Origin: a phage
NCBI GenBank assembly: GCA_036930585.1
Contig: GCA_036930585.1_3066.1
Length of the DNA: 64,000 nt
Direction: 5' to 3' (one strand)
Part shown: positions 1 through 63,648 of the stretch, one piece after another
How positions within the stretch are numbered: the first letter of the stretch is position 1
Layout: each line of letters starts with the position of its first letter
Position numbers and translations under genes: made by a program
The notes under the pieces: model-generated
Seen by the model: only the letters and a program-made list of their open reading frames with translations
The model's database searches: none
What the model was told of the DNA's origin: nothing

Positions 1-524
<524 letters not shown>

Positions 525-551
525 AATAAAATGGGCCTTGCGGCCCACTCC

Positions 552-25298: not shown

Positions 25299-26623
25299 TT
25301 GATTTCCTCTAAATCTTTGGTGTATTCTGTAACTACATCAGTAGTTTTCCAATATTCATTTTCTTCTTTTTTGGCTTTAGCTTCTTCAGCAAGTTTCTTT
25401 GCTTCGTCGGAAGTCATATGAAAAATGTTCATTCCAACTAGTTTATCAACATAAGAAGAATACATATCAATTTTAGAAAGTTCTTCGGTCAGTTCTTTGC
25501 GAGTTTTACCTTGTACAACAATTTCACCTGAAATTACTTTCTTAATGAAATGTGCCTTGGCAAAAGCTAAACGAAATGCTGATTCAGTTTCTTTGATTTT
25601 GTTATCAATTCGTTTTTGGACATAAGTTTTACGAACTTCAACGAAGTCTTTGATTAAATCAACTACATTATCGTAAACTTGCAGCTTTCCTTTCTCATTA
25701 ATGACGGTAATATTCTGGGAACGACGCTCAATCAACCCGAAGTCTTTCATAATTTTTGCATGGCGTTCTTCTTCATTATCGCTCAAAGAGTATTCTTTTC
25801 GGAATTTAACTTTGAAGCCAAAGCCATGCTCACCACAAGCATCATCCCATGTAATGAAGCCTTTATCTTCAAGTGGGTCTAAGATTTTACTCACGTAAGT
25901 TTCACGATCATACTTATATGGAATCTCAGTGATATGCATTTGAGTTCGTGAAGTAAACTTATATGTTCCACGAATTTCATATTGCCCATCAATTTCAACG
26001 ACTTCACCACGAAATTCTGGGAATTCTACCTTCGGTTTAGTTACTTTCTTTCCTTGAAGAGCTTGCAGTACAGCTTTCTTGACAGAAGAAACACTATGAG
26101 GAAGAATGTAAGTTGCATAACCAGTTGCAATACCGGAAACGCCATTAAGAAGAACAGTAGGAATAACAGGCAAATAGAAAGCAGGCGGAATGTGTTCTTT
26201 ATCTTGATGTACCGGAGCATATTCAGTATCTTTATATACGTTATAGAAATTTTTACTTACACGAGCAAAAATATAACGACTTGCTGCTGCCTTTTGGACA
26301 GTACGAGAACCAAAGTTTCCTTGACCGTCTAACAGAGGAAAGTTATTATTCCAAGTGTTAGCCATCAAAGCACCTGCGTCTTGCGCAGAGTTTTCGCCAT
26401 GATGATATCCAAGGTCCGCTACACCGCCTGCGATAGAAGCGAGTTTGTGAAACTTATCTTTATTTCCTCGTGCCAAATCAAGAGCTCGAGCAATAACAAA
26501 TCGTTGAACTGGCTTAAATCCATCAATCATATTTGGAATGGCACGATTTTCAACCGTGTACATAGCATAAGCCAATGCTTCATTATCAATGATACTTTTT
26601 AAATCACGATTATTCAGTTGCAT
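25295..26623 (-). CDS. 52: DNA topoisomerase II medium subunit gp52
   Basis: 442-aa ORF with GyrA-like active-site region. Confidence 0.95.
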   Translation of the reverse strand: MQLNNRDLKSIIDNEALAYAMYTVENRAIPNMIDGFKPVQRFVIARALDLARGNKDKFHKLASIAGGVADLGYHHGENSAQDAGALMANTWNNNFPLLDGQGNFGSRTVQKAAASRYIFARVSKNFYNVYKDTEYAPVHQDKEHIPPAFYLPVIPTVLLNGVSGIATGYATYILPHSVSSVKKAVLQALQGKKVTKPKVEFPEFRGEVVEIDGQYEIRGTYKFTSRTQMHITEIPYKYDRETYVSKILDPLEDKGFITWDDACGEHGFGFKVKFRKEYSLSDNEEERHAKIMKDFGLIERRSQNITVINEKGKLQVYDNVVDLIKDFVEVRKTYVQKRIDNKIKETESAFRLAFAKAHFIKKVISGEIVVQGKTRKELTEELSKIDMYSSYVDKLVGMNIFHMTSDEAKKLAEEAKAKKEENEYWKTTDVVTEYTKDLEEIK

Positions 26624-26627
26624 AAAT

Positions 26628-26768
26628 TTACCATACTAGTGAATGTAGTGCCATAATAACATCAGAAATGAAAAGCACGACTTGAATTAATCCGAACATT
26701 ATTCCGTAATATAATGCTATCAATAAAATAGCAAGGGCTAATGAATAGCCCAAGATTTTCTTAATCAT
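26628..26768 (-). CDS. Small membrane protein (46 aa; possibly ac-like)
   Basis: MIKKILGYSLALAILLIALYYG...; not in track (<60 aa). Confidence 0.35.
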   Translation of the reverse strand: MIKKILGYSLALAILLIALYYGIMFGLIQVVLFISDVIMALHSLVW

Positions 26769-26919
26769 TAGTAGATAACAACACAAATGTTAAATATGCA
26801 CACATACCCTGGGCTAAAGCTTGTGAAAACACACTGCTAGCATCGATACAGATAGTTAAAACACATGCTACTATCCAACAAATAAATGAAATAACTCCTA
26901 ATAATTTTGCGATATTCAT
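26761..26919 (-). CDS. Small membrane protein (52 aa)
   Basis: MNIAKLLGVISFICWIVACVL... with GAGGAAAATATG SD. Confidence 0.35.
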   Translation of the reverse strand: MNIAKLLGVISFICWIVACVLTICIDASSVFSQALAQGMCAYLTFVLLSTND

Positions 26920-26926
26920 ATTTTCC

Positions 26927-27007
26927 TCACTGGCGTCCGAAGACGCCTTTAGTTTTAAGATTATTACGATAGAACTGCATCACGTGTTCGTTGTGGAAAT
27001 TACTCAT
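26927..27007 (-). CDS. stp: Stp peptide (26 aa)
   Basis: Reads [26 protein letters not shown], the T4 Stp sequence as recalled; start overlaps ndd stop. Confidence 0.7.
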
Positions 27008-27860: not shown

Positions 27861-28075
27861 TTTACACCATTCCAAATTGTTTCAACCACGGATTTTAAAC
27901 CATTTTGATGAATATCAATTCCGACTACCGTCATCAAATAAATTCCAACTACAACTGAACCTAAGGCAAAAATCAGCATGAAAATGAATAAAGCCGGAAA
28001 AATATTATCGAAAAACCATTCAATAAATGTAAAAGCACTGCGTTTACGCTTCATATTTTCCTCACATAAATCCAA
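27857..28075 (-). CDS. Small membrane protein (72 aa)
   Basis: ORF track; two hydrophobic segments. Confidence 0.45.
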   Translation of the reverse strand: MDLCEENMKRKRSAFTFIEWFFDNIFPALFIFMLIFALGSVVVGIYLMTVVGIDIHQNGLKSVVETIWNGVK

Positions 28076-28175: not shown

Positions 28176-28203
28176 TTTCTGTTCCTCCGTAGTTGATAGG
28201 GTA

Positions 28204-28233
28204 ATAGTACCACGGAAGAACAGTCTTGTAAAC
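28204..28233 (-). promoter_or_regulatory. T4-type early promoter
   Basis: Minus strand GTTTACAAGACTGTTCTTCCGTGGTACTAT. Confidence 0.5.
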
Positions 28234-28418: not shown

Positions 28419-28682
28419 TCATAGTTCAATCTCAACGATTTCCAAGTGTTTTTGTTTTATTGCCTTTTTAACACAATCATGGACTAAATATGACCATGAA
28501 TCATTATATTCTCCATTAACTAATCGTTGGAGATCTTCACGTGATGATAAGTAAGGTTGATCTGATTCCCATTTTGATAAAAATACTGCAGTAAAAATAT
28601 CTCCTTCATCTGTAGTTGAAGTCGTAAATGCAATAAATTCACCGGTAATTTTATGTTTAGCGTAATAAAATTTAAATTTCAT
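28419..28682 (-). CDS. Hypothetical protein (87 aa)
   Basis: Start moved to ATG 28682 (MKFKFYYAKHK...) with GGAGGAG SD. Confidence 0.45.
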   Translation of the reverse strand: MKFKFYYAKHKITGEFIAFTTSTTDEGDIFTAVFLSKWESDQPYLSSREDLQRLVNGEYNDSWSYLVHDCVKKAIKQKHLEIVEIEL

Positions 28683-28709
28683 TTTTACTCCTCCGTAGCT
28701 GATAGTTGT

Positions 28710-28739
28710 ATAGTACCACGGTCCTTGTGGTATGTAAAC
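28710..28739 (-). promoter_or_regulatory. T4-type early promoter
   Basis: Minus strand GTTTACATACCACAAGGACCGTGGTACTAT. Confidence 0.5.
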
Positions 28740-28755
28740 CATTTTGTGAAATTTT

Positions 28756-29313
28756 TTAAATAGAAAGATACCATCCGCTGTAGTTGCTTTTTCTTACAAC
28801 CTTACGAAGGTCTTCTCTGTCACCGATGAACTTCGGAGTGTACTGGATAACACCTGGATGAATTTCTTTAGTGTTGAATATAATTATACAGTCAGCGACT
28901 TGATGATTTAGAATGGGCCCTAGATTTATTCCAGAACCATATGGATACTCTCCGCTGCATCCTGTTGTCACCGAAATCCAACGTGAGTCAGTTTGATGTG
29001 TCTTAACTTCTACACGAAGCCCGCAGTATCTTGGATGCGCCAATACATCCCACGCGTATGTATATGGATCATCGACATCTTCTTGACCTTTATTAACATA
29101 CCCGCTTAGCCAATCTGCTACAAAAAACTCTGCGTATACAGCAATACGACATCTTTCAATAACTTCTGCTTTATCCTGGTTCGGGTTTTGTTTTAAAGAG
29201 TATCTTGCAGTATCAGCAATTTTGACCTTCATTTCGCTAGTCAAGTCACTGTTCGATAGGGTAAATGTCGGAATCTGAAATAGTCTCTGTAAACCCGGAT
29301 TCGTTTTCTGCAT
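28756..29313 (-). CDS. denB: Endonuclease IV (DenB)
   Basis: 185-aa ORF; length and position between ndd and rIIB. Confidence 0.85.
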   Translation of the reverse strand: MQKTNPGLQRLFQIPTFTLSNSDLTSEMKVKIADTARYSLKQNPNQDKAEVIERCRIAVYAEFFVADWLSGYVNKGQEDVDDPYTYAWDVLAHPRYCGLRVEVKTHQTDSRWISVTTGCSGEYPYGSGINLGPILNHQVADCIIIFNTKEIHPGVIQYTPKFIGDREDLRKVVRKSNYSGWYLSI

Positions 29314-29575
29314 TTAGACTTTCCTTTTTACCACTGAGATAAGCGTTATATACTTTAAGAGTGCCGTAATAAATTCGGTCATTTTCATCTAAAGACTCGC
29401 GGTCAAGTTCATCGAGCTCCTTTTTATCCATGACTATAACATCATTACAGTAAAGAAACCCAAGTTTTTCGTGACCAAACTCAAATTTATTACAGTACAC
29501 AATATTAGCGTGATGATTTCCGTGCAGTTTAATCTCTTTTATGTCGGAATCACCGATATTCATATAATAAATCAT
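29246..29575 (-). CDS. Hypothetical protein (109 aa)
   Basis: ORF track; 3' end overlaps denB start in another frame. Confidence 0.4.
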   Translation of the reverse strand: MIYYMNIGDSDIKEIKLHGNHHANIVYCNKFEFGHEKLGFLYCNDVIVMDKKELDELDRESLDENDRIYYGTLKVYNAYLSGKKESLNAENESGFTETISDSDIYPIEQ

Positions 29576-29592
29576 AATTTCTCTTAAAACAA

Positions 29593-29610
29593 AAGGGCCG
29601 AAGCCCTTAT
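29593..29610 (-). repeat. 18-nt hairpin repeat AAGGGCCGAAGCCCTTAT (copy 1)
   Basis: Identical to 29821..29838; GGGC-UUCG-GCCC hairpin followed by U-run. Confidence 0.8.
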
Positions 29611-29611
29611 T

Positions 29612-29806
29612 TTATTTGAATTGTGCAATTCTTTTCTCTAGACATTCAGCATAAGATTTCATTGAGATAAACTGCGAAAGTAACAGTTCTTGCTCAACTG
29701 CATTAACTGTTAGAAACTTTGCGCTTTCTAAAAATTTGCTCAGTGCATTAATTTTGAGCATTAATTGATCGTATTCTTCTTTTACTCGTGCTTGATAACC
29801 TAACAT
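29612..29806 (-). CDS. Hypothetical helical protein (64 aa)
   Basis: ORF track; flanked by identical hairpin repeats. Confidence 0.5.
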   Translation of the reverse strand: MLGYQARVKEEYDQLMLKINALSKFLESAKFLTVNAVEQELLLSQFISMKSYAECLEKRIAQFK

Positions 29807-29820
29807 AATTTTCCTCAGTT

Positions 29821-29838
29821 AAGGGCCGAAGCCCTTAT
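29821..29838 (-). repeat. 18-nt hairpin repeat AAGGGCCGAAGCCCTTAT (copy 2), directly after rIIB stop
   Basis: Exact copy of 29593..29610. Confidence 0.8.
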
Positions 29839-30773
29839 TTAAATTGTTCAGTAACGTCTTCAACTACTTCGTATTGGCAGGTACGCATTTTAGCATCGTT
29901 GTAATCAATCGGAATTGATACTACATCACGCGGATGTACTTTAACTTTTACAACTCGGCTAGTTGAACTGCCAAAGTGACGAATATAAGATTTAGAACAC
30001 ACATGCAGACCACGAGAACAAGTTTGTGTATCATCGTCATTCACACGAGTACGTGGCATTTTAACTACTTTACCCGGACTGTTATCAAAGGTGTTTGAGT
30101 GACAGTCAAAGTAGTTGTCACGAACTACTTTCCAAGCATAGAAGTAACCATCTTCTGTAATTTCAATATCATTTGCTACCAAGAAATCAAAGAGTCGAGA
30201 TACCGCTTTTTGGCTTGGGTTTTCCAGCAGATTTTCCAAGAACGGAAAATAAAATTCAAAGTTTTCACCTTTTTCCATCGAATCGAGAATACGATCAACC
30301 AGACCAGACCGTAATTCGATATTTTGATAGAACAAGCTTCCGCCTTCAATTCGAACATCACCAGAAATATATTTTTCAACAGCGCGACGAACATTAATTT
30401 TTTGTGCCGCTTCTTCCAACTTATCCGCTACAAGCAGATTAAGAATTTCCTGGAAGTTTGAATGAGTATTAGGAGTTGCGTTATAAGTTACACCGTCAAC
30501 AGTAATTGAAATGAATTTTTTAGATGCATTCCAAATAATGTCAGATTTAGCAACTGGAGCAATAGCTACATCGCTATTAACTTTAACTGTAATATCACCG
30601 CTAATAGTAACTTTAGAGCGTTTAGCTTCTTCAGCATTTTTCAAAACACGACGGATTGTGTCAACCGATACACCTTGCCAATCAGCCAATTCCTGTTGGG
30701 TGTAATTACCACTTGAATACAGCTTAACAATTTCAGCTTGTTCGTTTTTGGTCAGGCATTTAATATTGTACAT
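29835..30773 (-). CDS. rIIB: rIIB protein
   Basis: 312-aa ORF MYNIKCLTKNEQAEIVKLYSSGNYTQQELADWQGVSVDTIRR... Confidence 0.95.
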   Translation of the reverse strand: MYNIKCLTKNEQAEIVKLYSSGNYTQQELADWQGVSVDTIRRVLKNAEEAKRSKVTISGDITVKVNSDVAIAPVAKSDIIWNASKKFISITVDGVTYNATPNTHSNFQEILNLLVADKLEEAAQKINVRRAVEKYISGDVRIEGGSLFYQNIELRSGLVDRILDSMEKGENFEFYFPFLENLLENPSQKAVSRLFDFLVANDIEITEDGYFYAWKVVRDNYFDCHSNTFDNSPGKVVKMPRTRVNDDDTQTCSRGLHVCSKSYIRHFGSSTSRVVKVKVHPRDVVSIPIDYNDAKMRTCQYEVVEDVTEQFK

Positions 30774-30784
30774 AATTTTCCTTA

Positions 30785-32962
30785 TTAGGCCGCAAGGGCC
30801 TTCATAGTTTTAGCGATTTGGGAAACTTCATCATCGCTTAAAGAATTGCGATAACCGATGAAGTCGGAAACAATACGGAATTTCTTGGTAAACTCAGCAA
30901 CCATTTTATCACTATTTTTTGAAGCATTACGTGATAATTCATCAAAGAGATTAGTTACTGTCCAGATATCATGACCGATGGTATCTTTTCCACCATTGAA
31001 ATACACACCGCGTAATGAACTAACCATATTACCAAGTCGTGTATATTCTTCAGAAACTTCATCTGTACTGAAGTACTTCATCATAAAATCTAGTTCAGGA
31101 TACTTGATAATTTTATCAATATATCGTTGAGCTGAACTTGAATAACCTACGTACTTATCATAATCTACATCATCAAAAGCATCTACATATAAATCACGCA
31201 GAGTTTCAAAAATACATTGGCACTGACCGAGTTCTTTTACCTTTTTCTGTAAAAGCGGACGAATAACATAAAATTCATTAATGCCAATAAGATTAGCCAT
31301 ACGAATCAAAATATTCATAGATGGATGACAAAGTGATGTAGTACCATCCATAGAGAAAATATCAGAACGATGCATATACGCTACATACCCAGTAATTTCA
31401 TCTGCTTCTGATGTGAGCGTAAATAATTCCTCTTTTTCCCAGCGCCCATCTTTAATTTCAAACTTAAATGCTGTAGCAGCTTTAGGACGAGGAGCTTTAC
31501 TTTTAACTACCTTTGGAATATAGCTTTTAACTAAAGCTTCGATTTCTGACAAATAATGAATGTTAACTTCATCACTTTCAAACATCGCCATAATATCAGG
31601 GAGTAAATCAATCTGCGATTCTACTTCTGGATTAATAAACAGAAGGCGTTCGTTGTGATGAATATTCAAAGTGTTATTAAATTCACTATCATCTAACGCA
31701 TGTGCTAATCCACGGACAATATTAACACGATTTTTAATATTATCAATAACGATATTAATTTTTGTTGCATTAATACCAAACAGACGATAACTTGATGCAA
31801 CGGCTGAAGTTTCATGACTTTGCTTAATGCGCTTCAGTCGAGGGTCAAGATTTACTTCATACACAACTCCTGCATTGCATAACTTACTATCAGGTTCAAA
31901 CATGCTTTGCATCTTCTTATATGACAGATTTTTAGTCGTAAATTTGACTGAATTACTAATCATATAATCTCGAGCAGAATACCCCATCTTCATCAATTCA
32001 CGATATGTATGACGGGGAGATGTGGATTCTTTAAATCGTTTTACATCTTCATTAAATGCTTTCTCACTGAGTTCTTTAACTCGTTCAATAATATTTTTAC
32101 GAGTACGATCATCCAGTGAAAGAGCCTCGCGAGATGGAGCAATATCAAGTGAACCCATTGGAAACTTAATGTAATTCACTTCATTGCGAATGCTTAGCCA
32201 GTTACGGTCTCTAATAACACCATCGATAGGATAAACAATACCGCCATAGATAGCATATAATCCACCACGATCAGGCCAGTATCTTTCTGGATTTACACCG
32301 TAATAGTCATCAAAATCCGGAAAATAATCAATTTCGCGGTCAAGACCATTAATGATAGCCAAATCTTTGAACGGTCGCATGATATAAGAAACTTCATAAG
32401 CAAAGTTTCTAAAGTCTTTTTCTTCAACTGGAACTACGATTTCAATACCAGTTTTATCATCTGGACCCATTTCTTTTACGAATGTAGGTTTAATCTGTGG
32501 GCCATCACCATCCATGTAAGCTACATAACCACGAATTTCACCTTTATGATACGAAGTAATACTAAATGTATCAGTATAACTAAACGGAGATTTAGAACCT
32601 AAACCAAATCCGCCAATAAAGTCATTAGATTCAGCTTTAGATGAACTGAAGTATGAATTATACAACCCAGGAGAATTATCATCACCTTGAATATCAAAAT
32701 CGCTCATACCTGGACCAAAATCTCGACAAACAAATCGCGGATCTAATCGTCCTGGAACTTGAATGATAAATTTTTCAGGATTTCCATTGAGAGCATGGGC
32801 ATCAATCATGTTGGTAATCAATTCACGGACTACTGCGCGAATCTTGTTTGTATACAAATCAGATGACAGAATTTTGAATACTTTAGGAGATGCTGTGATG
32901 CTAAATGCCTTTGATTTAGAACCATTGCCAAGAATTGTTTCTTTTTCAGTGGTGATAATCAT
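30785..32962 (-). CDS. rIIA: rIIA protein
   Basis: 725-aa ORF with GHKL ATPase-like N-terminal region. Confidence 0.95.
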
Positions 32963-53022: not shown

Positions 53023-53385
53023 TTAAAAGAATTTAAATTTTTTCTTTGACCTTTTATTAAATGCATCTTGCAGTTGCATTGTAATACATTTTTCTACATG
53101 AGGAGCTAACTCAGCTTTTCTTTCTTGGTCAAGAACAGCAAAGTCCATTACGACTTTTCCATCAACCCAATCTAATTTTGTCACATACACAATGTGTGTA
53201 GAACCATCTTCTAGTTTAATGACAATCTCCTGGATAACATTTTCCATAGCGGATTTAATTATCTTAAGAGATTCATTAAAAAGACGTTCTTTTCTTTCTT
53301 CTTCCCCCTCCGAAGAGGGGGATTCATCGATAATTTCTAGATCTAAGTCTAAATCATCTTTATTCATTAAATTCTTCCATATCAC
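53023..53385 (-). CDS. 40: gp40 (head assembly accessory protein)
   Basis: 120-aa ORF between uvsX and 41. Confidence 0.65.
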   Translation of the reverse strand: MIWKNLMNKDDLDLDLEIIDESPSSEGEEERKERLFNESLKIIKSAMENVIQEIVIKLEDGSTHIVYVTKLDWVDGKVVMDFAVLDQERKAELAPHVEKCITMQLQDAFNKRSKKKFKFF

Positions 53386-62910: not shown

Positions 62911-62942
62911 AATTTCCTCATTCAAGTTTTAGTGTAAATTAT

Positions 62943-62960
62943 AAAGGGCCGAAGCCCTTT
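62943..62960 (-). other. AAAGGGC-CGAA-GCCCTTT hairpin between genes 45 and 44
   Basis: 17/18 match to the 29593/29821 hairpin repeat. Confidence 0.45.
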
Positions 62961-62961
62961 A

Positions 62962-63648
62962 TTAAAAATCGTGGGTAGAATCAGCTTCAAGAGCTACCAC
63001 ATAATTCGCGTGTTCACCTTCAAATTTAGCAGCACCTTGTTTACCTTTTGCCCAGAGCAGAAGTTTATAATTTCCTGGTTGCATTTTCATATTTGCCATA
63101 TTGATAATGAAATTAAATGTGTTTTCACCATCATAATCACCAAGAGTCAAAGAATATTTAACACGAGTCAAAGCAGAATCTTCTACTTTATTAAAACCGT
63201 TAATTACGATTTTACCTTCTTTTACTGTGATAGCAATTGTATCAATCTGCAGACCGCGAGATACACGCAACAGCTGTTGAAGGTCTTCAGCTTTAATTTC
63301 GGTAACAACAGATGCTACCGGGAATGGAATTGGTTTATTAGGAGCAACTACTGTACTCGGATCGGCTGCTGGCCAAAAAATTGTTGAACGAGCATCAGCA
63401 ATTTTAATATTTCCATCTTCTGACTGAGAAATTTCTGCATCATCATTAACTAGCGACAGAATACCGAGAAAACCGTTCAAATCGTAAATTGCTACATCAA
63501 AATCAATAACGTCAGAAATATTTGCTTCCGCATAAGTTGTACCATTAACTGCGCGAGTCATAATAAATTGACCGGATTTAAGCATAATGCCAGAGTTAAT
63601 AGTAGCGAAATTTTTAAGCAGAGCAGTAGTATCTTTAGACAGTTTCAT
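62962..63648 (-). CDS. 45: Sliding clamp gp45
   Basis: 228-aa ORF MKLSKDTTALLKNFATINSGIMLKSGQFIMTRAVNGTTYAEA... Confidence 0.95.
   Translation of the reverse strand: MKLSKDTTALLKNFATINSGIMLKSGQFIMTRAVNGTTYAEANISDVIDFDVAIYDLNGFLGILSLVNDDAEISQSEDGNIKIADARSTIFWPAADPSTVVAPNKPIPFPVASVVTEIKAEDLQQLLRVSRGLQIDTIAITVKEGKIVINGFNKVEDSALTRVKYSLTLGDYDGENTFNFIINMANMKMQPGNYKLLLWAKGKQGAAKFEGEHANYVVALEADSTHDF

Follow-up and report, generated by a model that had tools for sequence, protein, structure and literature searches.

Why does a small gene of a T4-like phage lie between two identical hairpin-forming sequences, and do these mark the ends of a movable unit or act in the RNA of the genes that they separate? 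The preliminary description of this DNA had drawn attention to an 18-mer, AAGGGCCGAAGCCCTTAT, found at 29593..29610 and again at 29821..29838 of the window (the whole stretch of 64,000 nucleotides analyzed here), and had taken it to suggest either a hairpin-bounded mobile or exchangeable gene cassette or RNA-stability hairpins. Here we conclude that the two copies are very probably RNA-level punctuation elements of the known T4 UUCG hairpin class and not the ends of a mobile cassette. The class has been known since 1988 and both hairpins are already annotated in GenBank; recognizing an eye-catching exact repeat around a small open reading frame (ORF) in a T4-like genome as regulatory punctuation is mainly of value for annotation.

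A search of the window confirmed both exact occurrences of the 18-mer, which had no match in any of 100 dinucleotide-preserving shuffles. The exact repeat comprises 20 nt (29593..29612 and 29821..29840), the identity over an extended repeat is 24 of 26 positions, and the two copies are 228 bp apart. The repeat is thus far beyond chance for random sequence, yet it is unsurprising within the hairpin class described below. A third copy, reported as a 17/18 match at 62943..62960, proved to be a 16/18 ungapped match at 62944..62961. The window is a segment of a Tequatrovirus (T4-like) genome; the 2.2-kb region around the repeats shares 97.5% identity with phage ESCO58 and about 95-96% with T4 and T2.

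All genes here are encoded on the minus strand, so that the RNA reads AAGGGC-UUCG-GCCCUU, a C(UUCG)G tetraloop hairpin. The proposed hairpin GGGC-UUCG-GCCC is therefore correct for the minus (sense) strand and incorrect for the plus strand. The 64-aa ORF at 29612..29806, likewise on the minus strand, does lie between the repeats as described, with rIIB on one side and the denB-proximal genes on the other. In the direction of transcription, the features of the interval are as follows, the two hairpins being termed hp1 and hp2.

30785..32962, minus strand: rIIA.
29835..30773, minus strand: rIIB (312 aa), the upstream gene, whose stop codon is embedded in hp1.
29820..29837, minus strand: hp1, UAAGGGC-UUCG-GCCCUUA, whose base includes the rIIB stop codon (29835..29837).
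29612..29806, minus strand: denB.1 (64 aa), a conserved small gene.
29593..29608, minus strand: hp2, AAGGGC-UUCG-GCCCUU, starting 3 nt past the denB.1 stop codon.
29583..29592, minus strand: U-rich tail of hp2, which together with the stem's own 3′ UU reads UUUUGUUUU and is followed by AAG.
After the hp2 tail: a GAGAAA Shine-Dalgarno sequence, then the ATG of the 109-aa ORF at 29575.
29246..29575, minus strand: the 109-aa ORF (DUF7418, PF24193, phrog_2237), downstream of hp2 and overlapping the denB start.
28756..29313, minus strand: denB, encoding endonuclease IV (185 aa).

The small ORF corresponds to the annotated T4 gene denB.1 (NP_049888). Its product belongs to Pfam family PF21825 (crAss001_48-related, 5e-19) and to phrog_774 (2e-22), and a homolog is present in 661 phage records. 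Distant homologs occur in crAss-like Bacteroides phages and in one Providencia phage. A comparison of the DenB.1 sequence with the PDB gave nothing significant, and literature searches returned nothing relevant on denB.1 function. Many GenBank records label DenB.1 as an "endonuclease", apparently propagated from the adjoining denB; no nuclease domain was detected in DenB.1.

hp1 has a perfect 7-bp stem with a predicted energy of -10.1 kcal/mol, hp2 a perfect 6-bp stem with a predicted energy of -8.8 kcal/mol, and the minimum-free-energy fold of the 311-nt context contains both. hp1 overlaps the end of rIIB, starting 3 nt before the stop codon ends, and the sequence on its 3′ side, ACUGAGGAAAAUUAUG, provides denB.1 with its Shine-Dalgarno sequence and start codon. 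The next ATG lies 13 nt after hp1 and 17 nt after hp2. The spacers between stop codon and ATG amount to 28 nt and 36 nt, 16-18 nt of which are taken up by the hairpin in each case.

As a G+C-rich stem-loop followed by a sense-strand U-tract (tail UUGUUUU), hp2 agrees with the sequence definition of an intrinsic terminator, and it is the sole minus-strand terminator-like call in the rIIB-denB interval (AAGGGCUUCGGCCCUU, then UUGUUUUAAG). hp1 falls outside this definition; its tail, ACUGAGGAAA, lacks a U-tract, and the scan calls only the antisense strand. In NC_054915 both sites are annotated as "putative transcriptional terminator", several other T4-like GenBank records likewise mark both as putative terminators, and X75802 annotates hp2 as a stem_loop. 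An Rfam scan of 28500..31000 at E<=1 yielded only a chance SraG match (21.9 bits against a gathering score of 50).

The T4 reference sequence differs at both hairpins. One G is missing from hp1 (GGC/GCCC) in NC_000866 and in the T4 entries X04376 and X75802, which date from the 1980s-90s, and one C is missing from hp2 (GGGC/GCC) in NC_000866 and X75802. A recent T4 assembly, OZ209023, has perfect stems; in it denB.1 codon 3 is GGT instead of GCT. Since the stems are perfect in the recent assembly, we rejected the idea that the T4 hairpins are truly imperfect or non-identical, and the T4 reference probably carries 1-nt compression errors from old sequencing in both hairpins.

The two hairpins have company in the window. 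A scan of both strands of the 64 kb for CUUCGG hairpins with a stem of at least 6 bp returned nine on the minus (sense) strand and none on the plus strand. The nine, with stems of 6-9 bp, are the following.

62941..62962, minus strand: a third near-identical hairpin, AUAAAGGGC-UUCG-GCCCUUUAU, with a 9-bp stem, unlinked to the pair and 33 kb away, located between a 228-aa ORF and a 319-aa ORF.
60773, minus strand: a hairpin at another unrelated junction.
53303..53322, minus strand: the strongest hairpin, UCCCCCUC-UUCG-GAGGGGGA (-15.9 kcal/mol), 37 nt past a 391-aa ORF, within the span of a 114-aa ORF call (53023..53367), its tail being A/G-rich and not U-rich.
46535, minus strand: a hairpin with a U-rich tail.
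36143, minus strand: a CUUCGG hairpin.
33610, minus strand: a CUUCGG hairpin.
29820, minus strand: hp1.
29593, minus strand: hp2, with its U-rich tail.
26932, minus strand: a CUUCGG hairpin.

The 228-aa and 319-aa ORFs around the hairpin at 62941 presumably represent T4 genes 45 and 44, which they match in sizes and order. Seven of the nine hairpins start between -5 and +3 nt from the preceding stop codon, A-rich 5′ and U-rich 3′ extensions are present in six, and the GGGC-UUCG-GCCC core is common to four, including those at the unrelated junctions 62941 and 60773. U-rich tails follow only 29593 and 46535, which indicates that most of the nine are not canonical terminators.

These properties are those of a class described earlier for T4. 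Throughout the T4 genome, CUUCGG hairpins are found on the sense strand only (PMC7165471), and T4 intergenic stem-loops, for example terminators, "often" have a UUCG loop (PMC1702504). PMC8948821, citing Tuerk et al. (1988), describes such hairpins as "especially abundant in T4", located for the most part between genes, and able to halt reverse transcriptase; citing Gorski et al. (1985), it adds that the gene 32 mRNA is stabilized by a 5′ CUUCGG hairpin. As relayed in PMC8948821 and PMC7165471, the intercistronic C(UUCG)G hairpins of Tuerk et al. (1988, PNAS 85:1364) consist of CUUCGG closed by G+C-rich arms, are confined to the sense strand and to intergenic sites directly past stop codons, and are abundant in T4-type genomes. 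hp1 and hp2 share all of this and show no material difference from the class so described, other than that they merely have the same stem and flank one small gene. They have its sequence-defined features, namely the hexamer with its arms, the sense strand, the intergenic position and a selected structure. Unusual thermal stability is a further mark of the class, for which hp1 and hp2 have the predicted energies given above.

The selected structure is apparent from a survey of 55 loci, made up of the window itself, 13 regions from GenBank and 41 loci retrieved from IMG/VR by means of a rIIB profile. The arrangements between rIIB and denB are given below.

Tequatrovirus, 12 loci: hp1, denB.1, hp2, DUF7418.
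Dhaka-, Kanagawa- and Marfavirus-type, 20 loci: hp1, denB.1 and DUF7418, with -1 to 7 nt between the last two and no hp2.
Winklervirus-type, 3 loci: two hairpins with different stems (AAGGAGAC, AAGGCC).
L047-49 (IMG/VR), 3 loci: the rIIB stop overlaps the denB.1 start (...GCTAATG...) and hp1 is absent; a UUCG hairpin and a U-run follow denB.1 (AAAGCCC-UUCG-GGGCUUU), the punctuation being shifted by one gene.
L041, 1 locus: denB.1 (42% identical) flanked by hairpins whose loops are UCAG and GCAA; DUF7418 missing.
Mosigvirus (RB69) and Jiaodavirus, 8 loci: one hairpin and DUF7418, no denB.1; in RB69 the single hairpin is followed by UUUUUUCUUU.
L051, L052, L054, L056 and L058, 5 loci: one hairpin, with denB directly next.
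L050, L055 and L057, 3 loci: other inserts.

Over deep time the rIIB-denB interval is thus plastic, holding zero, one or two small ORFs. A hairpin follows the rIIB stop codon in 50 of the 55 loci, from at least eight genera, and in 43 of the 55 it carries a C(UUCG)G loop. The stems of this post-rIIB hairpin vary (AAGGGC, GGAGGC, GGGGC, GGGGAC, AGGAGCC, AAGGAGAC, AAAGGGCC), and they vary in a compensated manner. Among 28 distinct loop-anchored sequences, 96.4% of the cells are paired, compared with 31-69% in slid controls; compensatory double changes affect four of the six pairs (the pair beside the closing pair, for example, occurs as G-C, A-U and C-G), the closing C-G pair is invariant, and none of 500 shuffles reached the observed covariation score. 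This full covariation count applies to hp1 only; hp2 was seen in Tequatrovirus, in the Winklervirus-type loci and in L047-49, with different stems. Weak stems of 4-5 bp located 18-27 nt past the denB.1 stop codon in some genera fall within the following ORF, and we did not class them as hp2. The covariation data set for the post-rIIB hairpin and the map of the rIIB-denB interval across genera are by-products of this survey.

Why, then, are the two copies identical in Tequatrovirus? In the best reading of the data, hp1 and hp2 are independent members of the class, and their identity reflects a narrow class consensus and not cassette ends. This consensus would consist of a TAA stop codon or an A-rich lead-in, GGGC-UUCG-GCCC, and UU. 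The copies vary independently of one another: L019 and L022 have the loop UUUG in hp1 and UUCG in hp2, and the stem extensions also differ, hp1 being longer in T2 and FriedrichZschokke and hp2 in ESCO58 and L019.

Alternatively, the hp2 of Tequatrovirus could be a copy of hp1 placed in the denB.1/DUF7418 junction, or hp1 a copy of hp2, the shared sequence being a relic of this local duplication whatever the hairpins do today. In keeping with this, the copies share an exact 20 nt at a distance of 228 bp, and the loci of the Dhaka-, Kanagawa- and Marfavirus types, in which denB.1 abuts the next gene and hp2 is missing, indicate that hp2 is a derived insertion of about 35 nt. However, the GGGC-UUCG-GCCC core with A/U flanks recurs at the unrelated positions 62941 and 60773, so that convergence on a preferred hairpin suffices to explain the identity, and the two copies show no concerted evolution. 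We also considered as a duplication signature that the repeat runs into both coding ends (CAATTYAAATAA, Q-F-K-stop) and rejected it as coincidence, since the rIIB ending ...EDVTEQF(K) and the denB.1 ending ...RIxxF are each ancestral to their own family, which accounts for the extension on both sides. We regard a local duplication as unlikely.

The next two alternatives ascribe to the hairpins a role in recombination. According to one, bare promoter-less UUCG hairpins could be minimal recombination linkers, and rare exchanges between them would have made the genus-level rIIB-denB patchwork. If this were true, a modular insertion of denB.1 would have left hp1 and hp2 behind as scars, or else the two hairpins would be the substrate from which Mosigvirus and Jiaodavirus lost the gene. 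We consider this very unlikely, at a probability somewhat under one in ten.

The other, a worked-out form of the cassette suggested in the preliminary description, holds that hp1 and hp2 serve as recombination sites, in the manner of the PeSLs (promoter-early stem-loops) but without a promoter, and that through them denB.1 is excised, inserted or exchanged, for example via mini-circles. Several observations are in keeping with it. Across genera the interval holds zero, one or two small ORFs with hairpins at the unit boundaries; the order rIIB-hairpin-DUF7418 in Mosigvirus and Jiaodavirus is exactly what recombination between hp1 and hp2 would be expected to produce; in RB49 and phi1, crossovers at PeSL stem-loops have been documented; and PeSL-mediated exchange has been proposed for ndd.4/.5 in T4 vs PST, only about 1 kb away.

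Within the genus, however, a search for empty sites found no natural one. In an alignment of the window with T4, T2, ESCO58, UKE3-1, FriedrichZschokke and PhiZZ6, both hairpins and denB.1 are present in all seven sequences. A census was conducted with a 541-nt query comprising hp2, denB.1, hp1 and 265 nt of rIIB, of which no more than about 58% could be matched by a site without denB.1, and non-intact records were identified by stepped E-value cut-offs. Earlier synthetic junction queries (126 nt and 64 nt), which join the halves of filled sites, were superseded by this census. hp1, denB.1 and hp2 formed one uninterrupted piece in 495 of 498 Tequatrovirus-level GenBank records, and the three others are explained: the PBM-1 record begins within the region and carries denB.1 at the opposite end, X75802 is a partial T4D entry ending inside the region, and X04376 (T4) joins the rIIB stop, hp1 and ACTAAGGAAA to the TTTATG of gene 52. 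The deletion in X04376 removes about 3.2 kb, from denB.1 through the genes upstream of 52, and its joint lies in a Shine-Dalgarno/ATG microhomology (GGAAAATTATG vs GGTAAATTTATG) on the 3′ side of the hairpin, not in the hairpin; we presume it to be a laboratory D-region deletion used in cloning strains. The joint, at 500..540 of X04376, involves positions 29806..29822 and 26621..26640 of the window. An exact-pattern scan of IMG/VR for the empty junction returned no match, and the filled-site control detected only four contigs.

Thus, denB.1 is a fixed, conserved gene of Tequatrovirus, and a mobile or exchangeable cassette finds no support within the T-even phages. The preliminary description had itself named the invariance of the ORF and both hairpins in T-even genomes as refuting its reading, and this invariance is what we found within the genus; relatives with one hairpin and no ORF, for which it had advised looking, were not found as natural alleles among the 498 Tequatrovirus-level records and are present at genus distance, in Mosigvirus (RB69) and Jiaodavirus.

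The element that does vary among T-evens is the 109-aa DUF7418 ORF, not denB.1. In T4, T2, UKE3-1, FriedrichZschokke and PhiZZ6, it contains an in-frame deletion of about 213 bp, which splits BLAST hits and has the microhomology TAAAAG/TAAAAAG at its edges, not the hairpins. A remnant ORF of about 37 aa is left, with Shine-Dalgarno sequence and ATG unchanged, in a stretch annotated in the T4 reference as non-coding spacer between denB.1 and denB. The indels seen near the hairpins use other microhomologies, namely TAAAAG in the DUF7418 ORF and Shine-Dalgarno/ATG in the rIIB-52 deletion. A translation-initiation string, GUGAGGAAAAUAUGAA, is repeated exactly over 16 nt at 26915..26930 and 28050..28065, and a 13/15 variant of it, UUAACUGAGGAAAAU, follows hp1 at 29808..29822. 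At two of the three sites the string comes immediately after a UUCG hairpin (26932 and 29820), and the rIIB-52 deletion used microhomology of just this kind.

The survey also speaks against the cassette. No downstream hairpin is present at 20 of the 39 loci that carry denB.1 and no upstream hairpin at 3 of the 39. Hence, 23 of 39 carriers miss one hairpin, paired hairpins are not needed for having denB.1, and gain and loss of the gene are independent of them. Outside Tequatrovirus, paired hairpins are not identical where both exist, as in the Winklervirus-type loci (AAGGAGAC vs AAGGCC). In addition, the available homology is only 20 nt, and a promoter cannot fit into spacers of 28 nt and 36 nt.

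The comparison with PeSLs (Arbiol et al. 2010, PMC2839356; Comeau et al. 2014, PMC4122927) leads to the same assessment. Like hp1 and hp2, PeSLs contain intergenic stem-loops flanking small non-essential ORFs in a plastic early region, and a terminator or attenuator role has been proposed for their stem-loops (PMC2839356, PMC4122927). By contrast, hp1 and hp2 have no sigma-70 promoter, and no minus-strand promoter match was found in 29576..29611 or 29807..29834. They share 20-26 nt, not about 100 bp, and are not associated with indels among close relatives, denB.1 being absent only at genus distance. hp1 and hp2 are not PeSLs, and their acting as cassette ends is very unlikely.

Least credible of all, with only a few chances in a hundred, is that the palindromes act at the DNA level, for example by forming a cruciform, by binding a protein or as a signal for a nuclease or for replication. 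Palindromes do by nature occupy both DNA strands, and terminator-like calls were obtained for both sites on the plus strand as well. Against this reading, the loop is asymmetric (UUCG in the sense strand, CGAA in the other), the class occurs nine times on the sense strand against zero on the other, and stems that covary freely around a fixed loop fit an RNA tetraloop and not a sequence-specific DNA site.

We return to hp1 and hp2 as RNA punctuation. The alternative offered in the preliminary description, RNA-stability hairpins, is borne out in kind by the restriction to the sense strand, the covariation with a conserved UUCG loop and the location at stop codons; as to which hairpin terminates and which stabilizes, we infer the activities from sequence features. 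hp2 resembles intrinsic terminators in being a G+C-rich stem-loop downstream of a gene, followed by UUUUGUUUU. Unlike typical intrinsic terminators, both hairpins have short stems (6-7 bp), and hp1 is followed only by UU before the next Shine-Dalgarno sequence. Stabilizing 5′ or 3′ stem-loops of bacterial and phage mRNAs, among them the hairpin in the leader of T4 gene 32 (Gorski et al. 1985, as cited in PMC8948821), are also very stable hairpins at cistron boundaries and able to block exonucleases or 5′-end-dependent decay, whereas the stabilizing role is putative for hp1 and hp2. Literature searches for T4 3′-end maps or stability data covering the hp1/hp2 locus found none.

On these grounds we propose a division of labour between the hairpins, to which we give roughly even chances. 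hp2 would most likely serve as a partial Rho-independent terminator or attenuator and as a barrier to 3′-exonucleases after denB.1, and would thereby control how much transcription continues into the DUF7418 ORF, denB and the ndd genes. A sequence scan showed no promoter between hp2 and denB; with no evident promoter of their own for the downstream genes, termination at hp2 can only be partial. Moreover, four genera (20 loci) manage without hp2, which is therefore dispensable for expression of the operon. hp1 would most likely be an mRNA-stabilizing, insulating hairpin at the rIIB/denB.1 boundary, which may shield the rIIB message from 3′-to-5′ decay after processing, or else the 5′ end of the denB.1 message. 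The rIIB stop codon forms part of the hp1 stem, which would therefore be melted for a moment by each terminating ribosome. The role of hp1, which has no U-tract and lies outside the simple terminator definition, is the least certain part of the proposal.

Repeats with promoter-like sites are found nearby as separate elements. A 40-nt repeat of 80% identity occurs on the minus strand at 28176..28215 and 28682..28721, the copies being 506 bp apart; they flank small ORFs downstream of denB and are located 1-1.5 kb downstream of the hairpins. Each copy lies just downstream of a promoter-like site (28232..28204 and 28738..28710; TTTACA-N17-TACTAT, TG-extended) and contains the leader CUACGGAGGA, whose GGAG Shine-Dalgarno sequence is the RegB-type motif. 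These repeats look like the early-promoter/PeSL-type cassettes of T4 and PST, and X75802 annotates promoters in the homologous region of T4.
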